DNA of 40,554 nt from a virus. The translations under genes and the position numbers were made by a program. This document shows, in pieces, positions 24,130 through 37,132 of the stretch (within the stretch, counting starts at the first letter, position 1; each line of letters begins with the position of its first letter). Below the pieces are notes generated by a model. The model was not told where the DNA came from, ran no database searches, and saw nothing but the letters and a program-made list of their open reading frames with translations. The stretch lies in the UHGV virus genome UHGV-0200722, one strand, 5' to 3'.

Positions 24130-24133
24130 AGTT

Positions 24134-24200
24134 GAAGCCCCAACTGCGGGAACAGTCAGGGCTTCGGTTGTCAGTAAATCCGTGGAGAAAAACCAACATG
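24134..24200 (-). ncRNA. sar: Candidate sar-like antisense RNA region across the arc-ant junction (boundaries approximate)
   Basis: In P22 a small antisense RNA covers the ant RBS and ends at a hairpin between arc and ant; a GAAGCCC...GGGCTTC hairpin lies at 24134..24164. The promoter was not identified here. Confidence 0.3.
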
Positions 24201-25133
24201 AATAGTATAGCAATTTTAGAAGCAGTGAACACCTCTTACGTACCATTCAACGGTCAGCAAATTATCACCGCCATGGCTGCCGGAGTTGCATACGTTGCGA
24301 TGAAGCCAATCGTTGAAAACCTTGGAATGAGCTGGTCAACGCAGCAAACAAAACTCATGAAGCAGATTAGCAAATTCAACTGTGTTCATATGAACATGGT
24401 TGCCGCTGATGGGAAGCTTCGTAAGCTACTCTGCCTTCCTTTGAAGAAGTTAAATGGATGGCTGTTCAGCATCAACCCTGAGAAAGTTCGTGCTGACATC
24501 CGTGATAAACTGATTCAGTACCAGGAGGAATGCTTTAGCGTGCTGCATGACTACTGGACTAAAGGCCATGTAGTTAACCCACGCAAAGCTAAAAAGGCGT
24601 TGCCGGGTAAAATCACCACTGAGCAGCAGGAAGCCATTAAACAACTCGTCATGAGTCGCGGTCAGTCTCTGCCAAAAGAAAAACAGGCGAAGGCAATGAT
24701 TACCATGTGGTCGTCACTGAAATCCCATTTTGGATGTTCGTACAAAGAAATCAGTGAGGAGCAGTTTACCGAAGCACTGTCACTTGCAGCTCGAGTTCCA
24801 CTTGAAGGCGAGTTCATTGGCAAACAAGAGAGGAAAGTCAAAGAGCTTTCTGCAAAAGAAGCAAACAGCCTTGTATGGTTATGGGATTATGCCAACCGCT
24901 CACAGGCATTATTCCGCGAACTGTATCCGGCGCTGAAACAAATTCAATCGAACTATTCCGGCAGATGCTACGACTATGGTCATGAGTTCTCGTATGTTAT
25001 CGGAATGGCGAGAGACGTTTTAATAAACCACACACGAGATGTTGATATCAATGAGCCAGACGGACCAACGAATCTTTCCGCATGGATGAGACTTAAGAAT
25101 AAAGAATTACCTCCTTCAGTACATAACTACTGA
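24198..25133 (+). CDS. ant: Antirepressor Ant
   Basis: Start [14 protein letters not shown]... at 24198 downstream of arc; ~311 aa; classical immI position. Confidence 0.85.
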
Positions 25134-25311: not shown

Positions 25312-27654
25312 ATGACAGATATTACAGCCAATGTTGTAGTGAGCATGCCTTCGCAACTCTTCACTATGGCTCGTTCTTTTAAAGCCGTAGCCAATGGCAA
25401 AATTTATATCGGTAAAATTGACACTGACCCGGTAAATCCTGAAAACCAGATTCAGGTTTATGTGGAGAACGAAGACGGTTCTCACGTTCCTGTTTCGCAA
25501 CCAATCATCATTAACGCTGCTGGATATCCGGTATATAACGGACAGATTGCCAAATTCGTTACCGTGCAAGGCCATTCCATGGCTGTTTATGATGCGTACG
25601 GTGCTCAGCAGTTCTATTTTCCTAATGTGCTAAAGTATGATCCAGATCAGTTTAGGCAGCAGCTTGCAGTAGTTGATAGCAATGTATTGATTTCTGGTGT
25701 TCCAGCAAAAGATGTTGTAAATGCCAAAACTGGACGAGCACCAGTAGTTATGACTCGAAAAGTTACAGACCTTCTTCTTGATGGTAAGGCTGGATTGCGT
25801 AAAAACTTTGGTGCTGTAGGCGATGGTAGTCATGACGATACACAGGCATTTAATGATCTGTGGGATGCGCTTATGGATCCGACATATAAACGCCGCGCAA
25901 TAGAAACAGACGAGGTTGGTCTGCCATTTATGATACAAAAAGGCCCGGCACTTCTAATTGAAAATGGAACGTTTATTTACAATGGGCCTGGTCTCAATAT
26001 TGAAACATCAGATTCATTTGTATTTAACATATCAGGTGAGAGCAGTATTTCAACAAAGATACTTTTACCAGATGGAGTATACCTATTCGATTTCGATAAT
26101 AACCCTGTTCATGCATATCTAGGGAACATGTCAATTCATGGTGGTAAAGGTGCTGTTCGATACAAATCAAAAGAACGATCAACTAACAGCATTCACCTTT
26201 TCGAAAATCTTCGCCTGTCGAGATACAAGGAGTGTGGCATAGGGAATAATTCAATCGATATGCCGTATTTCCGAGTGAAGGGATGCATGTTATACGGGGA
26301 CCCAGCAAGCCAGACTATTGGTATTTGTGTCTCTGGTTACTCTGCTGGCGGCTTCATTGAGGACTGTGTTATCAGCGACAATAGATATAATATAAAACTG
26401 GCAGTTGGTGATAATGGCGTGGAGCGTAATGGCCCTGCAACGCCTTTCTATGTCTGCAGGAACGACATGTACCGCACGGGGCGACGAGCGCCATCAGCAT
26501 CGTATGACATATGGATTGAGCCTGGTGCTACTACCCTCAACTCTGGGAGAGGTATTCAGATAATCCAAAATAAATTTGGGCAAGAAAACCTAATCGCACC
26601 AGATACTCATGTTTTGATCGCAGATGCTGCCGCTACAGGGAGCGGGTTAAATCTCAATGGAGATCGCGCTCATATAGAAACACAGTCAGTTGGTTTTGTG
26701 TCTGGCTTACGTTTCGAGGGGAATAACGTAAACTCAGCTAATAGTGGATATATTGCCCCTTTCATTCGCTCATTTACGCCAAACCTTGGAAATAACAAAA
26801 TAAATGACCTTTATGACAATGACATGCCAGCAAGAATCATAGAGTTCGCGGGTGGCATAACCCAAAGTCAAATGACTAACCTTTCACGTACCAACGTCTT
26901 TAGTGCAGACCAATGCATTGCGCTTCAGAAGGGTGTTGAACCTAAGTTGTTATCTAACCTTAATGATGTCTTCCGGCTTGATGATCCTTTGGGGTTCTAC
27001 GTCGGGCATCCTCAAGCTCAGGTTTTACCGTCAGGTTCTCAGCAGATTGGATTTGAATTGATCTACTCTGGGCCGACGTCGACGATTGGGGTGAGTAACG
27101 CAACAAGATTATCGGTAAATAACTCATATGGAGGAATATCGGAAGCAACTGAAATCACAATGACCGCTTCTGATGGCGTGGCAGTTGCCACTGTTGTTGG
27201 CGGACTTGCTGGTAGGAAGCACTGGATTGATTTCGAGCTTAAGCGCGGGACAACAAACCCTGTTGGTTCTGTTGTTGTGGAGATAATGGATGCTTCCGGG
27301 TCAGTTCTCCAACTTCGTCGTATTATTTTAATAGATACTTTTCCACGCTGGCAGAAAGTCGCCATTCCTTATATTCCAAATGAAGACGGTAATATTGTAG
27401 TCAAATTCAGATCTAATCTTTATTCGGCTGGAACGGCAACTAACTTTATTGTCGGAAATCTCAATGTTTACAGGAATGAGGAGCGAGTCAATACAGGGCA
27501 TAACTCAGGATTGAGGATGCAATGGAATCTACAACATACCGTAAGAGGCACAAGACACGAGTGGTATGACGCGTCAGGTAATTTACGCTCCAAAAATGGG
27601 GTGCCGAGTGGGGATGCCGATGGGGTAATCATTAGCGCTAACCCAACATTGTAA
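25312..27654 (+). CDS. Tailspike protein (P22 gp9-type head-binding domain; divergent receptor-binding domain)
   Basis: First ~110 aa match the P22 gp9 N-terminal domain ([12 protein letters not shown]...[34 protein letters not shown]...VLKYDPDQ); the remaining ~670 aa are unrelated to P22 gp9. Confidence 0.9.
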
Positions 27655-27681
27655 AAATTTGATCTTCGCATAGCTAGAAGT

Positions 27682-27701
27682 TACTGTATATAAAAACAGT
27701 A
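27682..27701. promoter_or_regulatory. LexA (SOS) box TACTGTATATAAAAACAGTA upstream of the 27718..28274 operon
   Basis: CTGT-N8-ACAG core with AT-rich spacer, 17 nt upstream of the ATG at 27718; possible -35 TTGATC at 27658..27663. Confidence 0.7.
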
Positions 27702-27717
27702 TTTTGAGGTTATAGAC

Positions 27718-27957
27718 ATGATCAGACGCAACATAATTTCGGAGGCTTTCAGAGCCTCCATTTCTATAAATCCTAAAGGTTATCAATACCTTTACACGCA
27801 TTCTTTCATCTCCGAACTACAGAGGATGGGTATCAATTTCTCAGAAGAGGAGGCTAACAACTGGATATCGAGAGAGCAGACTTACTTTGTTGACAAAACC
27901 ACCGACCATAGCGAAAACCGCCTGTGGATGCTGGCCAATATGGGGAGGGTGCTCTGA
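27718..27957 (+). CDS. Hypothetical 79-aa protein, first gene of the LexA-box operon
   Basis: ORF directly downstream of the LexA box; stop overlaps the next start (TGATG); no recognisable family. Confidence 0.5.
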   Translation: MIRRNIISEAFRASISINPKGYQYLYTHSFISELQRMGINFSEEEANNWISREQTYFVDKTTDHSENRLWMLANMGRVL

Positions 27958-28274
27958 TGGGATTTCCATCACCGGCGTCCGACTACGTCGAGCAGCTACT
28001 GTCCGTTAACTCGATATGCAATGTTGGTCCTAACACATTGTTGCTTGAAACCAGTGGTGGATATGCCGTGGTTGATGTCTCTCTGAAACTTAAGCAGAGA
28101 TGTCAGGTGATGGTCTGCTATGAAGCACATAATCAGATAGCGAAGCTTATGGGGAAATCTTTGATAACGGAGGATGGAGAGGCGATCGAGGGAGAGGCCC
28201 TGGATGATGTCACCGTTGCCGTCGTGGTGACGCATATTATCGTGGATGTGAGAAGTGACAGCGTAGCAGTATAA
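27957..28274 (+). CDS. UmuD'-like (HumD-like) protein lacking the catalytic Ser motif
   Basis: Begins M-GFPSPASDYVEQ, matching the post-cleavage N-terminus of UmuD (GFPSPAADYVEQ); C-terminal beta-region resembles UmuD, but the GDSM motif is not conserved. Confidence 0.5.
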   Translation: MGFPSPASDYVEQLLSVNSICNVGPNTLLLETSGGYAVVDVSLKLKQRCQVMVCYEAHNQIAKLMGKSLITEDGEAIEGEALDDVTVAVVVTHIIVDVRSDSVAV

Positions 28275-28619
28275 GGCAGACCCACAATCAGGGCCTGCCG
28301 ATTTTGATTACTCCACCTTTTCATCAATCCAGTCCGCCCACCACTGCATCATTTCTCTGCGCTTATCGTGGCAGATGCCTCACTATCACACGGTGATGGT
28401 TCATTACTGGTTTGCATAATGGATAGAGAACTGAGGATAAAAGATATCCCAAAACCCCAAAATCTCATCTTTAGGATTTGCAGAAAGGGAGGCGTGAACA
28501 AATACCTGCGCATGAAAACGGAACTAGTCCGGATGCGATATTTTTGGTGATCACGTACATCATCAACGAAGCGCGTTATGGTGAGTTTTATGACTGCCAA
28601 GTAATGTGAAAATTGCGAT

Positions 28620-28642
28620 GCGTACCAAATTGTGTACCAAAT
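28620..28642 (+). repeat. Arm-type direct repeats (GTACCAAAT x2), putative integrase arm sites of attP
   Basis: gcGTACCAAATtgtGTACCAAATt, ~280 bp upstream of int. Confidence 0.55.
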
Positions 28643-28870
28643 TAAAATCATAAACCATGAACCCCTTACTCATGGCTGTTCTCAGGCTGGGTGCGTGTAA
28701 TCGTGAAAGAGGAAGGTAGGTTGTTTATCTGTGTCTGTCATTGTCTAGCATTGTCCACTGTAGTTAATTAACTGTCTGTTATAACTCGAAAAAACAACCA
28801 TTTTTTCACCTGAGTATGTCTACGAACGTCAAATATAGTTGTTTACTGTGCGCTGTTGTCCATGTGATAT

Positions 28871-28923: not shown

Positions 28924-30102
28924 ATGGCTATAAGCGACACAAAACTGCGTACTATTTATGGTAAACCATATTCGGGCCCACAAGAAGTGGCTGATGCCGA
29001 TGGCCTCAGCGTACGAATTTCACCGAAGGGGGTCATCCAGTTCCAGTACCGCTATCGCTGGCATGGCAAGCCTAATCGACTTGGGCTTGGTCGATACCCA
29101 TCCCTGTCTTTGAAGGATGCCAGACAGATCACTGCTGACTTGCGAAAGCTCTATTTCTCAGGAACGGATCCACGCACCTATTTTGAAGAGAAGGTGGAGA
29201 ACTCCATGACGGTCGCCCAGTGTCTCGACTACTGGTTCGACAACTACGTCTCTACAACTCTCAGAGAAAAGACCCAGGCACTTTACCGATCAACGGTTAT
29301 GAAGCGCATGCATGACGCCTTTCCTAATCGTCCGGCATCTTCTATCACGGTTAAGCAATGGGTTGACCTGCTTACCGAAGAAGAAAGAGATAATCCACGC
29401 CGAGCAAGGCAGGTGCTAAGTCAACTAAGATCAGCAATAAGTTGGTGCATGCGGCGTCAGTTGATAGATAGTTGCGCAATTATGAGCATCCAGCCAAGGG
29501 ACTTCGGCTCCCGCGCTGAGGTAGGGGATCGGGTACTGTCGTATCACGAACTGGCTAAGATTTGGCTTGCTATTGAAAGAAGCCGTGCGTCTACGTCAAA
29601 TAAGCTCCTTCATCAGATGCTTATGCTGTGGGGGGCGAGGCTCTCAGAGCTTAGGCTGGCAACAAAGACAGAATTTGACCTGCTGGACAACGTATGGACC
29701 GTACCGAAAGAGCATAGCAAGATGGGTAATGTTATCCGCCGTCCAATCTTCGAACAAATTAAGCCTTTTCTCGAAAAGGCCATGACAACGTACAATGATG
29801 TTATTTTCCCTGGAGAAGACATAAACAAACCGATCAGCATCGCTGCAGCCAACCGATTCGTAAATAGAATAAGGGGAGGGATGGATCTAGGTTACTGGCG
29901 AACACATGATTTCAGAAGAACGCTTGTTACACGTCTGTCCGAGATGAATGTCGAGCCTCATGTTACTGAGCGAATGCTCGGTCATGAACTTGGCGGGATA
30001 ATGTCCGTGTACAATAAACACGACTGGATAGAGGCTCAGCGCAAAGCGTATGAGCTTCACGCTGATAAATTGTTCTGGCACATCAGGAGCATTTCTGATT
30101 AA
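28924..30102 (+). CDS. int: Tyrosine integrase (P4-type, arm-binding N-terminal domain)
   Basis: 392 aa; N-terminal arm-binding-like region (VRISPKGVIQFQYRYRW); C-terminal catalytic motifs (HDFRRT, LGH, terminal Tyr). Confidence 0.9.
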   Translation: MAISDTKLRTIYGKPYSGPQEVADADGLSVRISPKGVIQFQYRYRWHGKPNRLGLGRYPSLSLKDARQITADLRKLYFSGTDPRTYFEEKVENSMTVAQCLDYWFDNYVSTTLREKTQALYRSTVMKRMHDAFPNRPASSITVKQWVDLLTEEERDNPRRARQVLSQLRSAISWCMRRQLIDSCAIMSIQPRDFGSRAEVGDRVLSYHELAKIWLAIERSRASTSNKLLHQMLMLWGARLSELRLATKTEFDLLDNVWTVPKEHSKMGNVIRRPIFEQIKPFLEKAMTTYNDVIFPGEDINKPISIAAANRFVNRIRGGMDLGYWRTHDFRRTLVTRLSEMNVEPHVTERMLGHELGGIMSVYNKHDWIEAQRKAYELHADKLFWHIRSISD

Positions 30103-36134: not shown

Positions 36135-36449
36135 TCAGAAGCTATTTGGATTGCTTGGCCATTGCGGCAATTTTGATTCTACTGGGGTGTGTTTGGGTTT
36201 GAGTCCGTTTAAGTAGTCAAGGCGCTCAATGGCGCATTTATACATAGCAATCTGCTCTGATGACATGTCGTCGTATGACATGCCTTTGAACTTTTTAATT
36301 ATCGATTCTGCCTCATGTATAAGATTCTTCTTCCTCATGAGTTCAGTTGTATGCTTAGAGCTTACAGGAGATAACTTTGCCCATATGAAGCAGATGATTA
36401 CAACAGCGACTACTATGCCGGGTATAAACATTTGCTGCTTTATCCTCAA
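36135..36449 (-). CDS. Small single-pass membrane protein cotranscribed with cI (candidate lysogen-expressed exclusion or defence protein)
   Basis: 104 aa with N-terminal TM helix FIPGIVVAVVIICFIWAKL; start codon overlaps the cI stop (ATGA); a terminator follows directly. Confidence 0.65.
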   Translation of the reverse strand: MRIKQQMFIPGIVVAVVIICFIWAKLSPVSSKHTTELMRKKNLIHEAESIIKKFKGMSYDDMSSEQIAMYKCAIERLDYLNGLKPKHTPVESKLPQWPSNPNSF

Positions 36450-37132
36450 ACTTTTGGCAGATCGTCCTGGTCTACGTACCTGGTGTGTTTCACAATAGCT
36501 GAAACAAAATGCATTTTATCAACTTCTTCAACAGGAAGAGTGATTGGGCGGTGATCACTGTTTATGCTACTAAACTGATAATCACCGTCTCTTGTTTTGT
36601 TCATGATCTTTATCATGTTGTGACCGTCTTTGGTCCTTACAAAGACTTCATCACCTGGATGTACTGGCGTATTTGGTTCAATAACAACATATTCTCCTGA
36701 CTGAATCCTTGGCCACATGCTGTCACCCTTAACCTTCAGACCGTAAGCATCTTTATCGCCGCTGTAGATGCTTAACCAACCGGATCTGAATTCAATCATA
36801 TCCACTGAGCCATCAACTCCCAAAACGGCTTCACCAATTACCGGAACAAAACCCGCACGAACGTTACCCGCAAACTCAAGATGGTCCGTAGCTCCAGCTT
36901 TACCATCTGCAAGCATGTCCATCCATCCGCGTGGGAGATTAAAAGATTTTTCAATTAGTTCCATCATATCGTCAGCAATGCGTTTTTTTCCGCTTTTTCC
37001 TTCCGGATACAGCATTCTGGAAACGTATGATGGTTCCCTTTCTATTCGACGAGCCAACTCTGAGGCCTTTCCATTACAGAATCGGTCTCTTATCTCTATC
37101 AGCCTTAGTCGTCTTTGTTCGTATTTATCCAT
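36446..37132 (-). CDS. cI: cI-type immunity repressor (HTH plus S24 LexA-like autopeptidase domain)
   Basis: 228 aa; C-terminal domain with Ala-Gly site(s), GDSM serine motif and a downstream Lys; divergent from cro; flanked by OR and OL. Confidence 0.9.
   Translation of the reverse strand: MDKYEQRRLRLIEIRDRFCNGKASELARRIEREPSYVSRMLYPEGKSGKKRIADDMMELIEKSFNLPRGWMDMLADGKAGATDHLEFAGNVRAGFVPVIGEAVLGVDGSVDMIEFRSGWLSIYSGDKDAYGLKVKGDSMWPRIQSGEYVVIEPNTPVHPGDEVFVRTKDGHNMIKIMNKTRDGDYQFSSINSDHRPITLPVEEVDKMHFVSAIVKHTRYVDQDDLPKV

Follow-up and report, generated by a model that had tools for sequence, protein, structure and literature searches.

Between the tailspike gene and the attachment site of a P22-like temperate phage lie two small overlapping genes behind a LexA box, the second of which (ORF2), judged by its sequence, descends from the phage HumD lineage in a shortened form that has lost the protease loop, while the first (ORF1) models as a winged helix without named relatives. 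The pair is a common, mosaic module of temperate Enterobacterales phages. Our preferred reading, tentative and given somewhat less than an even chance, is that this cassette provides a HumD-type, pre-activated accessory factor with a positive role at host UmuC (the catalytic Pol V subunit) in the SOS response. A temperate phage that is induced when DNA is damaged has to copy its own damaged genome in an SOS-induced cell. LexA-regulated phage UmuD′ homologues are already known, namely P1 humD and N15 gene 26. In the searchable literature we found no description of an excised catalytic loop, of an obligatory winged-helix partner, of family-wide conservation of the SOS promoter or of the displacement of a classical humD, and a literature search for experiments or studies on the ORF2 family or on ORF1 found nothing specific, nor did it yield transcriptome data for this locus.

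The promoter, the gene pair and their neighbourhood

The stretch of DNA analysed, the 40,554 nucleotides of UHGV-0200722 (here 'the window'), codes for a tailspike with a P22 head-binding N-terminus (25312-27654), directly 5′ of the cassette, and, on the downstream flank, for an integrase of the P4/IntS type (28924-30102). It also codes for CII, an N-like protein, a P22-type Ant (24132-25133, accompanied by sar antisense RNA) and, on the minus strand, a CI-type S24 repressor (36446-37132). From the tailspike stop onwards the order is −35 hexamer, spacer, −10 hexamer with LexA box, Shine-Dalgarno sequence, ORF1, ORF2 and a hairpin, all on the plus strand; no umuC gene is adjacent to ORF2 in the window.

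As read from the sequence, a −35 hexamer TTGATC (27659..27664) is followed after 17 bp by a −10 hexamer TACTGT (27682-27687), which is at the same time the first six bases of the 20-bp palindrome TACTGTATATAAAAACAGTA (27682..27701), and a Shine-Dalgarno GAGG (27706..27709) stands 8 nt before the ATG of ORF1. Taking the LexA consensus of Enterobacteriaceae SOS promoters to be the palindrome TACTG(TA)5CAGTA with the core CTGT-N8-ACAG, the box agrees at 18 of 20 positions and is the sole 20-mer match in the 40.5 kb at three or fewer mismatches (100 shuffles gave 0 matches); the shorter core occurs at two sites in the window, of which the box is one. A near-consensus LexA box upstream of two ORFs is what a preliminary description of this DNA had reported, and all of its coordinates proved correct. 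A generic promoter scan of the window did not flag the −35 and −10 of the cassette.

The arrangement is far from being private to one phage. TTGATC, the 17-bp spacer and TACTGT with its LexA box recur upstream of the ORF1 homologue in all seven named-phage loci examined. Among 80 IMG/VR contigs, these being the ones recovered with the ORF1 profile, a CTG-N10-CAG box is present upstream of ORF1 in 74, starting 34-40 nt before the ATG in 73 of the 80 and 52 nt before it in one; five of the six loci without a full box have a GC-rich element in place of the promoter, and the sixth is a rearrangement that has left half of the LexA box. LexA boxes are also found upstream of P1 humD (an annotated site), of N15 gene 26, of a humD remnant in phage BTP1 considered below, and of HK140 gp27. 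We infer that the promoter of the cassette would be LexA-controlled in vivo.

Directly 3′ of ORF2 a terminator-like hairpin (28275-28299) is followed by GAUUUUGAUU, the whole spanning 28275..28309. Its predicted free energy is −13.9 kcal/mol with a z-score of −2.9, and none of 200 shuffles folds as well; a generic terminator scan of the window did not flag it. Another hairpin, inside ORF1 (27741-27759), was considered as a terminator and set aside: it is seen only in the ORF1 clade of the window and is absent from other clades, and with that confinement it is taken as a codon coincidence.

The ATG of ORF2 shares its A with the TGA of ORF1 (TGATG), a one-base stop/start overlap that is kept in 77 of the 80 IMG/VR loci, or in 78 when a variant beginning MAFPSPA is counted. 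Two translationally coupled ORFs between tailspike and attP had been described beforehand; the overlap and the flanking positions, 27654 and 28924, bear this out, and coupling, with the products made in matched amounts, is probable. The two proteins probably also form a complex. With ORF2 in the −1 frame, a programmed −1 frameshift joining ORF1 to ORF2 was considered and rejected, there being no slippery heptamer in 27880-27957; a 178-aa fusion, P0284, is an isolated frameshifted record.

In deposited phage genomes tblastn finds ORF1 in 47 and ORF2 in 61, the hosts being Klebsiella, E. coli (HK140, HK225, mEp390 and others), Enterobacter, Erwinia and Cronobacter. In every annotated case examined the pair stands between tail-fibre or tailspike genes and attP/int, and where E. 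coli lysogens carry it, no other gene pair comes between it and the argW-proximal end of the prophage. The phages that carry it are of several unrelated architectures (P22-like and lambdoid HK97-like). That the module is mosaic can be seen in the window itself, where identity to a Klebsiella allele is 90% for ORF2 and only about 70% for ORF1, the DNA similarity to that allele starting within ORF1. Purifying selection acts on both ORFs, dN/dS or pN/pS values being 0.04-0.27, with synonymous sites saturated in distant pairs. The survey also exposed systematic annotation errors, ORF1 going uncalled and the start of ORF2 being set downstream of its conserved arm, and it turned up HK225 and one IMG/VR contig in which a Hin-type invertase stands in place of ORF2.

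The slot has a history. A decayed long HumD-type gene (28353..28606, plus strand), which has lost its 5′ part, is frameshifted and contains an in-frame stop, corresponds to residues 44-128 of N15 gp26; tblastn matches it to N15 gp26 in two frames (E 6e-20 and 8e-8) and to P1 HumD (E 2e-18), and its DNA is 72% identical to the humD remnant of Salmonella phage BTP1. Because this decayed long humD lies directly downstream of ORF2, the cassette is taken to have displaced it: as we read the DNA, ORF1 and ORF2 with their control region now stand where the older gene had its promoter and 5′ part. BTP1 has a LexA box and its decayed humD between gtrA and int, Salmonella phage Oslo has umuD-umuC between tail genes and int, and N15 has humD alone in the corresponding slot. 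From the contents of BTP1, Oslo and the window, the att-proximal end emerges as a recurrent home of SOS and translesion genes. The cassette had been placed in the slot where P22 carries its gtr genes, but the module is peculiar neither to this phage nor to a gtr slot. Opposite-strand ORFs called over humD remnants are a further annotation error brought to light.

A short HumD relative and its proposed partner

ORF2 (105 aa, 27957..28274, plus strand) is a short protein of HumD/UmuD′ type whose first residue after the initiator Met is the glycine that follows the UmuD cleavage site (Cys24-Gly25), and it is without the Ser60 loop. Its N-terminus, MGFPSPASDYVEQ, is identical to UmuD G25-Q36 at 11 of 12 positions and its C-terminal strand VxGVVTHxI corresponds to UmuD VFGVVIHVV, so that the two likenesses originally pointed out, a start like that of processed UmuD′ and a UmuD-like final strand, both stand. 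Between these ends similarity falls away: identity to UmuD is 12/17 (71%) for the arm against residues 25-41 and 14/81 (17%) for the body, and single-sequence searches detect the N-terminus only. Profiles reach further. The comparison with UmuD that had been proposed as a check does find similarity, hmmsearch with the ORF2 family profile aligning to UmuD 25-135 at E 2e-6 with one 12-residue gap, and this gap falls exactly over D59-D70, the GDSM/Ser60 loop. P1 HumD, earlier invoked as a precedent, proves to be a full-length relative (hhalign probability 98.3%, E 2e-14, 102 aligned columns at 35% identity, the gap being the same), and phrog_3469, 'UmuD-like', matches at E 1e-41. PHROGs and some RefSeq records already label the ORF2 family 'UmuD-like'.

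In a multiple alignment with UmuD, P1 HumD, N15 gp26 and HK140 gp28 the short family is set apart by 12-residue and 5-residue deletions, keeps the HumD start M-GFPSPA and the strand GV(V/I)TH-I-D-RS and, in many of its members, has the HumD-type C-terminal tail DDCPxI. It is the full-length profile homology together with the shared start, strand and tail that places ORF2 in the HumD lineage, and the deletions that mark it as a short derivative. The Ser60 loop (UmuD D59-D70) is deleted across the whole short family, leaving no Ser-Lys dyad, and the position equivalent to Lys97 is occupied by K, R, T, S or V. Non-conservation of GDSM had been remarked on at the outset; the catalytic serine is indeed absent, but by a clean 12-residue deletion and not by mere divergence.

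Several features count against a HumD-like role for ORF2. It has no match in Pfam at E up to 10, PF00717 Peptidase_S24 included, and with the NCBIfam HumD equivalog NF051876 it reaches 34.7 bits, below the cut-off of 120 and over residues 1-63 only; its structure model, made from too shallow an alignment, is poor with a pLDDT of 43; the window allele has R14L, P45L, G48R and G89V at family-invariant positions; and the humD genes of P1 and N15 work without any ORF1. Decay into a pseudogene, a fate which the preliminary description had named as one that would undo its reading, is not what is seen: despite the four invariant-site substitutions pN/pS is 0.13 against the closest Klebsiella allele (the ORF2 values span 0.13-0.25), and of the 120 best database clusters 117 have an ORF2 of 105 aa.

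ORF1 (79 aa, 27718..27957, plus strand) belongs to phrog_3893, of unknown function. Structure prediction had been advocated for both proteins and their complex; run on each singly, it was of little help for ORF2 (the model noted above) and gave for ORF1 a winged helix, of topology alpha1-beta1-alpha2-alpha3-beta2-beta3 and with structural matches to winged-helix domains. Sequence searches with ORF1 of Pfam, NCBIfam, PADLOC and the PDB gave no match, and a structure search of BFVD matched only its own homologue in HK225. Clustering at 50% identity divides the family into 118 clusters, almost all of them standalone proteins of about 79 aa, and dN/dS for ORF1 is 0.04-0.27. The third ('recognition') helix reads as acidic, SEEEANNWISRE, while the C-terminal tail (consensus LWMxxNMGRVL) ranks with the best-conserved segments of these proteins, its last seven residues being poorly modelled. 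The tail is invariant and probably unstructured, and being conserved though poorly modelled it suggests a protein-binding element rather than a DNA-reading head.

Other origins for ORF1 fared badly. A DinI/ImpC or defence protein finds no Pfam, NCBIfam or PADLOC match, and the model is a winged helix, not a DinI fold; kinship with P1 Lxr gets an hhalign probability of 0.1%; a 'split LexA' would sit poorly with an ORF1-profile search that gave the 118 standalone clusters and no S24 fusions. Could the terminal MGRVL mimic LLRVK, with which UmuC ends? In plasmid and phage homologues of UmuC the final residues are PVAKL, PSAKLA, PIAK or LLVK, RV not being conserved, and the likeness is therefore judged a coincidence. 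Nor is it at all probable that the pair is a toxin-antitoxin or abortive-infection module merely resembling UmuD′. Two small overlapping genes in a moron position at the prophage end, one of them with the modelled fold of many antitoxins, do call such modules to mind, but ORF2 clearly descends from HumD, ORF1 has an acidic 'recognition' helix, and no match to defence or toxin families appeared in PADLOC, Pfam or NCBIfam; we regard that possibility as exceedingly improbable.

Possible roles in the SOS response

In a lysogen, host LexA sitting on the box that overlaps the −10 of a sigma-70 promoter would keep the cassette off. Its removal upon DNA damage would release one mRNA, starting near 27690 and ending at the hairpin (28275-28309), from which ORF1 and ORF2 would be co-translated via the TGATG overlap, probably in matched amounts and with probable complex formation. 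ORF2 would be a 'ready-made' UmuD′ needing no RecA-mediated cleavage, its protease loop excised and its N-terminal arm and C-terminal dimer strand retained. The arm would engage host UmuC, as those of UmuD′ and HumD do, and translesion synthesis would be supplied or tuned early in SOS, at a time when the induced phage has to copy its damaged genome and host UmuD is still uncleaved. ORF1 would act as partner or adaptor of ORF2 and not as a sequence-specific DNA binder. That the target is UmuC, and which way the effect would go, are what we infer.

Precedent comes from P1, which encodes an already activated, shorter UmuD, HumD, that promotes mutagenesis (PMC7092418, citing McLenigan et al. 1999). 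The promoter, slot and ORF1 partner shared by short and long forms suggest a conserved role. [quoted passage not shown] The same work has the C-terminus of UmuC docking on UmuD′ Ser60, Thr95, Lys97 and Glu93 (PMC11791011) and, because ORF2 has its Ser60 loop deleted and its Lys97 position variable, canonical UmuC binding by ORF2 may be weakened or altered.

That docking site is where a reading of opposite sign takes hold, namely that ORF2 poisons Pol V, by way of the arm site on UmuC or of heterodimers with UmuD or UmuD′, in which case the replicating phage genome would be shielded from SOS mutagenesis. The pocket that has been lost is where the Pol V model puts UmuC's C-terminus (PMC11791011); loss of the Ser60 loop and relaxation at Lys97 go with conservation of the arm, and replacement of a long humD by the short form in the window would fit a changed function. 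Nevertheless the closest characterised relative, HumD, promotes mutagenesis, and short and long forms have promoter, slot and ORF1 partner in common; we consider a Pol V inhibitor unlikely.

Alternatively the target might be RecA rather than UmuC, with an uncleavable S24-like ORF2 binding in the groove of the activated RecA filament (RecA*), ORF1 being its cofactor, and the cleavage of LexA, CI or UmuD being tuned, DinI-like or through ORF2 as a decoy substrate. The putative S24 fold, and the presence of dinI as a neighbour of the cassette in some lambdoid phages, speak for this; dinI linkage is absent from the window and from the Klebsiella loci, however, and the identity of the arm to that of UmuD′ on a drifting body would be left unexplained. 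We rate it quite unlikely. Elements of these readings meet in another, that ORF1 and ORF2 are a two-chain SOS-induced regulator put to new use from HumD stock, in which ORF2 would be a decoy by virtue of its UmuD′ arm, no longer completing Pol V but blocking or re-targeting UmuC or binding RecA*, and ORF1 would dock on it by its tail. It seems to us somewhat unlikely; if true, the cassette would be a phage switch over host translesion synthesis or SOS dynamics and not a simple substitute for UmuD′.

An antirepressor-like role, among those first proposed for the cassette, is not favoured. ORF1 and ORF2 would inactivate the repressor of their own or a co-resident prophage by heterodimerising with its S24-type C-terminal domain, and the operon would then resemble the LexA-controlled Tum of phage 186 and GfoA of Gifsy. 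The CI-type repressor of the window, however, matches PF00717 at 1.4e-17 and still has the Ser of GDSM and the Lys along with several Ala-Gly sites, and should for that reason be RecA-cleavable; a P22-type Ant is already present; the cassette moves among unrelated phage architectures, with related long forms in N15 and P1; and family searches with ORF1 and ORF2 (Pfam, PHROGs, NCBIfam) gave no similarity to known antirepressors. We hold this to be very unlikely.

To return to the preferred reading of a positive, HumD-type factor, it was P1 HumD that first gave the example of a phage equipped with a pre-activated UmuD′ of its own. To this can now be added that a protease-loop-less derivative, with a previously unnamed protein predicted to be a winged helix, is frequent among Klebsiella, E. 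coli and Enterobacter prophages, is under selection and can displace a classical humD. These genera include clinically important strains. If the cassette boosts Pol V, lysogens may mutate faster under SOS-triggering antibiotics; if it blocks Pol V or RecA*, it would be a natural inhibitor of SOS mutagenesis.

Comparison with known systems

Accessory proteins encoded beside Y-family polymerase operons have been described (PMC7092418), and the cassette can be set against several known arrangements. Acinetobacter UmuDAb-DdrR resembles it in that a UmuD-family protein has a small partner encoded beside it (PMC4807011), but UmuDAb has its own N-terminal DNA-binding domain and is self-cleaving, and ddrR is divergently transcribed. 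Phage 186 tum and Gifsy dinI-gfoA are, like the cassette, LexA-repressed small prophage operons that fire on SOS induction; the repressors of those phages are uncleavable, whereas the window repressor keeps its catalytic residues. Operons of the impCAB type also have a small gene before a UmuD-like gene under SOS control, though in the cassette there is no polymerase gene, and ORF1, with no DinI/ImpC match in Pfam, models as a winged helix.

With E. coli UmuD′ (PDB 1UMU and 8GMT) ORF2 shares the arm GFPSPAxDYVEQ, 11 of 12 residues being identical, and its fold may be S24-like as well; UmuD′ differs in being made by cleavage and in having the Ser60 loop, and ORF2 in being without an adjacent umuC. 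P1 HumD comes closer. It too begins M-GFPSPA just past the UmuD cleavage site, behind a LexA box just upstream of its gene, is homologous over its full length and ends in the same strand, GV(I/V)TH(V/I)I-D-RS. Yet at 129 aa, against the 105 of ORF2, it keeps the Lys and a Ser-containing loop (ADSH), and its gene, divergent from lxr, has no ORF1 upstream.

In HK140, N15 and phiKO2 a UmuD-like gene occupies the same slot between tail-fibre genes and att, or one by the partition genes, and in HK140 and N15 a LexA box lies upstream of that locus as in the window. Unlike ORF2, the products (HK140 gp28, N15 gene 26, phiKO2 gp23 and proteins of HK639) are full-length HumD-type proteins of 128-129 aa, with Thr at the Ser60 position and the Lys kept. 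N15 gene 26 has the LexA box and is without ORF1. In HK140 both features come together: gp27 is homologous to ORF1 (51% identity), and gp28, to which it is coupled, is of HumD type and, at 129 aa, full-length; a database record with a frameshift likewise pairs an ORF1 homologue with a full-length HumD-type protein.

Alleles of ORF1 and ORF2 and the repressor genes of the window

The short HumD/UmuD′-like protein encoded by ORF2 (window 27957-28274, 105 aa) carries four substitutions, R14L, P45L, G48R and G89V, at residues (14, 45, 48 and 89) where all other members of the family agree, and at two of these positions the S24 fold has a structural glycine; pN/pS over the whole gene is 0.13 despite the four changes. 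Within ORF1, which encodes the 79-aa winged-helix protein, the codons for EAFRAS (27741-27759) form a perfect 8-bp hairpin with a T-rich run behind it. Since this hairpin is present only in the window's own ORF1 clade, it is probably a coincidence.

The window's CI-type repressor (36446-37132, minus strand) has an intact S24 domain, with the GDSM serine and IKIM lysine, and three Ala-Gly candidate cleavage sites; NCBIfam gave no match to it. The immI-like region comprises a SocA/Panacea-domain protein (22740-23189), a sar antisense RNA (24130-24197, minus strand; scoring 95.6 bits with Rfam) and an antirepressor, Ant, of the P22 type (24132-25133).

Variation on either side of ORF1

In four of the compared phage and prophage loci, those of Eeyore (L001), mEp390 (L002), HK225 (L004) and HK140 (L008), a prophage dinI gene is divergent from ORF1, the two ATGs being ~100 bp apart with one LexA box between them, and this single box may control both genes. 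Five IMG/VR prophages (L017, L045, L058, L070 and L096) have, in place of the LexA promoter and about 90 nt upstream of ORF1, one and the same GC-rich element (CCGGGATCTGTGCGGGGGGTATCCGGTAACGGGTATCCC...), and in L075 the LexA box is reduced to one half. On the 3′ side, a Hin-type DNA invertase is substituted for ORF2 in HK225 (L004 2501-3408) and also in L091, with the junction exactly at the end of ORF1, which thereby gains a 20-aa foreign tail for a total of 99 aa.

Two annotation errors affect homologues of the pair. In E. coli VE-F5 (L012 3360-3635) PGAP starts ORF2 14 codons late, giving 91 aa, so that the conserved N-terminal UmuD′ arm is lost from the annotated protein. The ORF1 homologue of mEp390 (L002 2762-2998) was left unannotated, and an opposite-strand ORF, gp25, was called there.

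UmuD relatives near the integrase

Directly 3′ of ORF2 lies a decayed long HumD-type gene (window 28353-28606, plus strand), equivalent to residues 44-128 of N15 gp26, 5′-truncated, frameshifted and with an in-frame stop. On the minus strand, the ORF at 28349-28651 mirrors this remnant and is no real gene. Between gtrA and int, Salmonella phage BTP1 (L010 2458-2845) carries a broken humD together with a LexA box, TACTGTATTAATATACAGTA; the deposited annotation has the opposite-strand ORF BTP1_017 there instead. In Salmonella phage vB_SosS_Oslo this same slot, between tail genes and integrase, holds a complete umuD-umuC pair (L101 2001-3619); tblastn matches to its umuD start 108 nt before the annotated gene does, and judged from these alignments the deposited CDS start appears to have been placed too late.
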